From IMG/VR virus record IMGVR_UViG_2529293215_000009: a DNA stretch of 42,541 nucleotides. One strand, 5' to 3'. Below the pieces are notes generated by a model, which searched no databases, had not been told where the DNA came from, and worked only from the letters and a program-made list of their open reading frames with translations. This DNA comes from a virus. Taxonomy: Duplodnaviria > Heunggongvirae > Uroviricota > Caudoviricetes. A program made the position numbers and the translations under genes. Shown here piece after piece: positions 40,827 to 40,908 of this stretch (within the stretch, counting starts at the first letter, position 1; each line of letters starts with the position of its first letter).

Positions 40827-40908
40827 AGTATCAAATAAGTTGCGTATCGGCGTTTTTCAGCGGTATCAAATGAAATGCAAATCGGTATCAAAAAAATCGC
40901 CGCGCTAT
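40827..40908 (+). repeat. right end (attR-like) with three inverted copies of the terminal motif
   Basis: AGTATCAAA at 40827..40835, GGTATCAAA at 40862..40870 and 40884..40892; outermost copy extends to AAATCGGTATCAAA, inverse of left TTTGATACCGATT. Confidence 0.55.

Follow-up and report, generated by a model that had tools for sequence, protein, structure and literature searches.

The window, as the whole analysed stretch of 42,541 nucleotides is called here, contains a Mu-like transposable prophage of the family of Sp18 from strain Sakai, which is already known. Its genes are arranged in a Mu-like order: repressor, ner, A, B, gam, mor, lysis, head, tail, invertase, com and mom. The repressor-like open reading frame points leftward, the A and B genes are both full length, and the late genes are of the Mu type and are joined by an invertase, com and mom. 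Transposase A matches the Pfam families Mu-transpos_C (E = 1.5e-17) and HTH_Tnp_Mu_1 (E = 5.8e-6) and, weakly, the integrase core rve. Its PDB matches are retroviral integrase cores only, with no MuA chain among them at E <= 1e-3. The last gene, mom, shares about 72% DNA identity with mom of Mu and D108. A DDE transposase with Mu-type domains beside the left end and a MuB-like ATPase downstream are features of transposable phages, and the element is a transposable phage by all features tested except the TG-CA termini and, in comparison with Mu, the 5-bp duplication. The coordinates are collected in Table 1.

Table 1. Prophage, genes, terminal segments and target-site copies, in window coordinates
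Feature	Position	Strand	Remarks
Mu-like (Sp18-like) transposable prophage	1690..40909	+	39,220 bp; inside DUF4752 gene of a lambdoid prophage, E. coli O157:H7
Target-site duplication, left copy	1686..1689	.	CGCC; preceded at 1685 by an A of the host
Left terminal 17 bp	1690..1706	+	5'-TGTAACCAGGTGAATCA; canonical TG at 1690-1691
L1 core, first presumed transposase-binding repeat	1707..1714	+	TTTGATAC; 17 nt from left terminus
L2 core	1802..1809	+	TTTGATAC
L3 core	1854..1861	+	TTTGATAC
Ner-like winged-helix regulator	2661..2909	+	Pfam HTH_35, E = 2.5e-19
Transposase A	2911..5001	+	696 aa; DDE enzyme with Mu-type end-binding and C-terminal domains
MuB-like AAA+ target-capture ATPase	5072..6004	+	Pfam Phage-MuB_C, E = 2.5e-25; AAA_22, E = 4.1e-18
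Mom DNA-modification gene	40044..40781	+	Last before right end; Pfam Mom, E = 4e-77
R3 core	40828..40835	-	TTTGATAC
R2 core	40863..40870	-	TTTGATAC
R1 core	40885..40892	-	TTTGATAC; 17 nt from right terminus if that is 40909
Right terminal 17 bp	40893..40909	+	AAAATCGCCGCGCTATA-3'; TA at 40908-40909; predicted cleavage and joining 3' of A40909
Target-site duplication, right copy	40910..40913	.	CGCC

Genes of the DUF6645, DUF1378 and DUF826 types lie between the invertase and com/mom of the Mu-like prophage (window 36623-38662 and following), and the same gene types occur beside the lysis genes of the adjoining lambdoid prophage (L003, 724-2658 and 38416-41065). They look like a module common to two unrelated phage types. 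The prophage copy in strain FRIK2069 is shorter.

The insertion interrupts a gene of the DUF4752 family in the early region of the lambdoid prophage (window 1645-1689 and from 40910 onward; L001, 765-1082), and many E. coli O157:H7 genomes have a lambdoid prophage region that matches the window flanks at 100% identity. The two flanks, joined and run against complete E. coli genomes, matched in 1723 genomes. In 291 of them one unbroken match covers at least 80% of the flank query; these 291 are consistent with an unoccupied site, and the base-by-base comparison covers O157:H7 strain TR01 alone. In TR01 the uninterrupted site reads ...CTGAACGCCGGCC..., or in a longer form ...GGCCCTGAACGCCGGCCTGGCAC..., and holds one copy of ACGCC. 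The window matches this site up to 1689 and again from 40909, and ACGCC stands on both flanks, at 1685-1689 and 40909-40913. The limits of the prophage were taken from this empty site (L001), and the right limit was moved to 40909 by means of the 25 independent insertions described below. The left end begins with TG, at 1690, in keeping with the 5'-TG of the earlier note. Another TG, at 1785 (TGAGCGCTTAAAG...), precedes a TTTGATACC repeat and was considered as the left end; the empty site puts that end at 1690, and the repeat near 1785 is the second left binding site. The same comparison rules out a duplication of CTGG or CCTGG near 1780 and 40917.

The two ends are built alike. The core TTTGATAC has nine matches in the window against 1.09 expected, and six of the nine belong to the prophage ends, where those on the left and those on the right are inverted relative to each other. 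On the right, the TTTGATACC-type repeats R3, R2 and R1 are followed by a 17-bp terminal segment, ...ATCGCCGCGCTATA-3', and the left end mirrors this with 5'-TGTAACC..., 17 bp in all, and then L1. These repeats are presumed to be transposase-binding sites. The distance from the terminus to the first TTTGATAC core is 17 nt at both ends (1690 to 1707; 40909 to 40892), and this equal register fits a right terminus at 40909, since a terminus at 40908 would give 16 nt. A 13-nt sequence, ATGAGCGCTTAAA, is directly repeated without change close to the two ends, at 1784-1796 between the first and second left binding repeats and at 40778-40790 overlapping the mom stop codon. A chance origin of such a match between two so short regions is unlikely; the repeat is absent from the variant right end in LC727881 (L002).

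Few features of DDE transposition are as conserved as the CA-3' in which Mu, retroviruses and many transposons end, and the right end of this prophage lacks it. Window positions 40893-40908 read AAAATCGCCGCGCTAT, and there is no CA in the last 15 bp, just as the earlier note had reported for an end that it placed at 40908. That boundary had been fixed by a 5-bp duplication. The window's own insertion formally fits an end at either 40908 or 40909; what decides for 40909 is the comparison with other members of the family, which are 97-100% identical at their ends. Right junctions were gathered from complete genomes, a GenBank Stx-phage record and viral contigs, and the terminus was set at the point beyond which independent insertions diverge. 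All 25 unique right flanks of the phage family have A directly after ...GCGCTAT, and the positions that follow vary freely. A host origin of this A would require an A in the host five positions before the left end as well. Among the 12 insertions in which both junctions could be paired, that base is A in two, the window and L003, and T, G or C in the other ten. Because the A is invariant in 25 flanks while the host base at that position is A in 2/12, A40909 is read as a phage base. GenBank record LC727881, annotated independently, has the same ...CTATA end and a 4-bp duplication.

These comparisons place the true right end at ...GCGCTATA, with A40909 as its last base and TA (40908-40909) as its terminal dinucleotide. 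The absence of CA-3' is, by the same alignments, real and invariant in the phage family and no chance feature of the window copy: the termini are TG on the left and TA on the right, the latter in all 25 flanks. The suspicion that the boundary had been mis-set was justified, by one base outwards. The terminus is indeed non-canonical, as had been proposed, but it is TA-3' and not AT-3'; the A is conserved, and only the penultimate C has been replaced by T. That the right attachment end belongs to an intact, mobile Sp18-like transposable prophage whose true last base is A40909 is, from the sequences compared, very probable.

Moving the boundary shortens the target-site duplication. The repeat ACGCC does stand on both flanks, as the earlier note had seen, yet it does not fix the end: the window's 5-bp repeat reads as a 4-bp duplication preceded by a chance host A before CGCC. 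Of the 12 paired insertions, 11 have a duplication of 4 bp and one has a duplication of 5 bp. The 4-bp duplications are CGCC (window), CATC, CGCA, AAAC, ACTA, GTCA, ATCA, TACG, CGTA, ATTA, TGCC and AACA. The 5-bp case is TTTAA in ynjB (L007/L019, E. coli Z1323MEC0002), where the intact gene agrees at 100% identity over 390 nt; it implies that the stagger is not strictly fixed. Empty sites were thus matched for two insertions, that of the window and that in ynjB. L011 stayed unpaired, its left end lying outside the stretch compared, and L006/L018 (E. coli 2010C-3347) was left out for want of a duplication. The flanks of this one prophage copy share no duplication and sit in unrelated genes; they have probably been swapped by recombination or inversion between prophage copies, and the record has two matching places.

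The family is widely inserted. A 259-bp probe of the right end matched 232 of the 5426 E. coli genomes, at 284 places in all; single genomes have as many as four, the places lie in many different genes, and most matches are 97-100% identical. Insertion at many sites with a short target duplication is seen directly in the 25 right flanks and in the 12 pairs with 4 or 5 bp. The left end is less uniform: among viral contigs it reads TGTAACC in 16 and TATAACC in four. The TATAACC form is found in L022 (E. coli), L173, L179, L180 and L182. No two of these share a flank, so that TA is tolerated at the left end too, in independent insertions. L010/L022 is the one TA-left variant paired with a right end, and that right end is TA as well. 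Sp18 itself was predicted to be intact and was not circularised, and its DNA was efficiently packaged (PMC2669165); integration sites are reported to differ between strains (PMC7430833, PMC10132054). Strain Sakai releases phage particles spontaneously. Because the same end sits at many loci with fresh target duplications, the right end is regarded as functional and not decayed. Judged by these junctions, TA is evidently the functional right terminus of a family of E. coli phages that transposes actively.

The right ends of relatives agree in register. By transposase identity the prophage stands at 99.3% to the LC727881 copy, 47.7% to Pseudomonas phage VW-6B, 44.9% to Mannheimia phage 3927AP2 and about 30% to D3112-like phages. 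Further relatives were sought in genome contigs and viral contigs by the pattern R2-N13-R1. Matches in genome contigs were mostly due to chance, and the true relatives among them are two Leminorella loci and one contig of a metagenome-assembled genome. In all relatives found with this pattern the last base is an A that lies 17 nt past the R1 core. CA occupies the same register in two Leminorella grimontii loci (...GCGCGCTACA) and in L050, L033, L054 and L027. The right terminus of VW-6B reads ...TTCGCCGCGCTACA (also written ...CGCCGCGCTACA), that of Mannheimia phage vB_MhM_3927AP2 ...CGACCGCTTACA (also written ...ATCGACCGCTTACA) and that of Mu ...GCGCCGCTTCA, all three with CA. Comparison with the right ends of close relatives, which the earlier note had advised, recovers the same register and an A in last place (...GCTACA), against a boundary at 40908. 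On this alignment the Sp18-like end departs from the terminal sequence conserved in the family by one substitution, C to T, in the last position but one. CA-ended relatives were also sought in E. coli genomes as a means of measuring their duplication length, and none was found there.

A further group of relatives, whose repeats are arranged in the same way, ends ...GCGCGCTTTA or ...TGATTTTGCGCGCTTTA, that is, with TA, and has varied flanks. Its members are the viral contigs L046, L048, L055, L059, L063, L069, L075 and L078. TA right ends may be common in this clade.

Several other accounts of the right end can be weighed against an end at A40909. The phage might end ...GCGCTAT at 40908, with a Mu-like 5-bp duplication ACGCC and A40909 belonging to the host, an account that is in keeping with the 5-bp duplications made by Mu (PMC3562280) and with a repeat that stands on both sides of the prophage and once in the empty site. 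The family as a whole makes this very improbable: A follows CTAT in 25/25 unique flanks, the host base at the corresponding position is T, G or C in 10/12 paired insertions, R1 would lie 16 nt from the terminus against 17 nt at the left end, and the relatives end one base further out, at ...ACA. A variant keeps the Mu stagger by having the transposase nick after T40908, across 5 bp, and by making the constant A secondary, for instance a nucleotide from the flap of the non-transferred strand that survives gap repair and takes the place of the first duplicated base. It would square the data with Mu and with the five-base-pair shift of Ab30 (PMC5977238), and it predicts exactly what is observed, a 5-bp repeat in which A has taken the first place of the right-hand copy. 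The resulting mismatch should segregate, however, and many non-A copies would be expected where 0/25 are seen; the TTTAA case, which follows ...TATA, would need a 6-bp stagger; and the CA of the relatives at the same register argues that the A is the joined nucleotide. This variant is improbable, though less so than the plain 40908 boundary.

A decayed, non-functional end of a stranded prophage, one of the possibilities raised in the earlier note, would account for the loss of a CA-3' that is reported to be conserved at Mu-like phage ends (PMC4378225, PMC8705779). It is hard to credit when an identical end is present at many loci with their own duplications and in up to four places in one genome; when the transposase and B genes are full length; and when Sp18 DNA is reported to be packaged (PMC2669165). 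Descent of such an end from one vertical insertion is contradicted by the 25 different flanks. The true end could instead lie at an internal CA with a different duplication, as the earlier note had suggested of 40889-40890, the CA nearest to the boundary. This is next to inconceivable: that CA falls inside the R1 repeat core GGTATCAAA, a presumed transposase-binding site; all independent insertions are identical for a further 19 bp, up to 40909; and the empty site shows host sequence resuming at 40909/40910. An end at A40909 with a duplication of usually 4 bp is the reading retained.

Among known systems, the nearest are Sp18 (Sakai) and its STEC relatives, such as the LC727881 insert, which are of the same family and share the Mu-like gene order and the ...CTATA end. 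Nothing essential differs between them and the window copy, except that the latter sits elsewhere, in a lambdoid prophage gene. Papers on Sp18 describe it as Mu-like, intact and packaged, with the terminal dinucleotide and duplication length unmentioned (PMC2669165, PMC7430833, PMC10132054), and no description of a TA end or a 4-bp duplication in Sp18-like phages was found in a literature search whose coverage of key papers was incomplete. VW-6B and 3927AP2 are the closest isolated phages by transposase, and their right termini are nearly identical to that of the prophage and in the same register; they differ in having kept the canonical CA.

Mu resembles the prophage in its A and B genes, in having mom last, in its invertible tail-fibre segment and in its three transposase-binding repeats per end, spread on the left and close-set on the right. 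The right termini of both are G+C-rich and end in A (Mu ...GCGCCGCTTCA, prophage ...CGCCGCGCTATA). Mu differs in its TG...CA ends and 5-bp stagger (PMC3562280), where the prophage has TA at its right end and a duplication of usually 4 bp. The binding repeat of Mu is another than the prophage's TTTGATACC, and the prophage transposase is too distant for a MuA match in the PDB. The 5-bp duplication and the close MuA and genome relationship that mark the genus of Mu (Mu, D108, SfMu) are both missing from the prophage, whose DNA similarity is in mom only.

The D3112/DMS3-like Pseudomonas phages share about 30% transposase identity with the prophage, over 90% of the protein. Mu-like phages are described as having a conserved 5'-TGT triplet and conserved TG-CA ends (PMC4378225). 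In the D3112/DMS3-like phages TGT has been reported on both sides, and it matches the left end of the prophage (PMC4378225). The D3112-like phage Ab30 shows a five-base-pair shift between its two orientations (PMC5977238), against 4 bp in the prophage. The first exception to TG-CA ends was described in the WETA1-type TA-TA prophages of Leptospira by Olo Ndela, Enault and Toussaint in 2021 (PMC8705779), who ask whether TA-TA ends exist in other bacteria. The likeness lies in TA in place of TG or CA, and in mobility inferred from independent copies with target duplications (PMC8705779). The Leptospira prophages differ in their B3/Tn552-type transposase, 6-bp duplications and TA at both ends (PMC8705779), whereas the prophage has Mu-type transposase domains and a 4-bp duplication, and most of its copies are mixed, with TG on the left and TA on the right. 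Neither the 6-bp duplication nor the B3/Tn552-type transposase that define the Leptospira type is found in it.

A mechanism can be proposed by analogy with the chemistry of Mu (PMC3562280). The DDE transposase (2911-5001), aided by the MuB-like ATPase (5072-6004), would bind R1-R3 and L1-L3 and nick each end just 3' of its terminal A, and the two 3'-OH ends would then be joined to target DNA across a stagger of usually 4 bp. Relative to CA-3', the end has T:A in place of the penultimate C:G; the transferred strand still finishes in A, and its partner still starts with a 5'-T. CpA and TpA are both flexible pyrimidine-purine steps, so that by this analogy the end could still be opened and cut. 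The idea that TpA may stand in for CpA is based in part on mutations of the Mu terminal CA that Lee and Harshey are said to have studied (2001, 2003). Reviews state that flexible pyrimidine-purine steps are favoured at transposon termini (PMC6900584). The comparison suggests that the terminal A and a flexible pyrimidine-purine step, and not the C, may be what counts.

The TA end leaves the general picture of transposable-phage action unchanged. Its interest is for transposition research, and its use is in the annotation of prophage boundaries, which come out one base off, as in the earlier note, when they are drawn by expecting CA and a 5-bp repeat. It seems reasonably likely, on balance, that the Sp18-like E. 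coli phages are a natural, highly active Mu-like lineage with TA-3' ends (TG...TA mostly, TA...TA in some) and a 4-bp stagger. If so, they would be the first enterobacterial example of non-CA transposable-phage ends and would answer the question, posed by the Leptospira study, of whether such ends exist in other bacteria. They would also offer a tractable E. coli system, with CA-ended relatives, in which to probe the need for CA and the length of the stagger. The Sp18-like family is common in pathogenic E. coli, and it evidently transposes well with TA at its right end and, in some copies, probably with TA at both.
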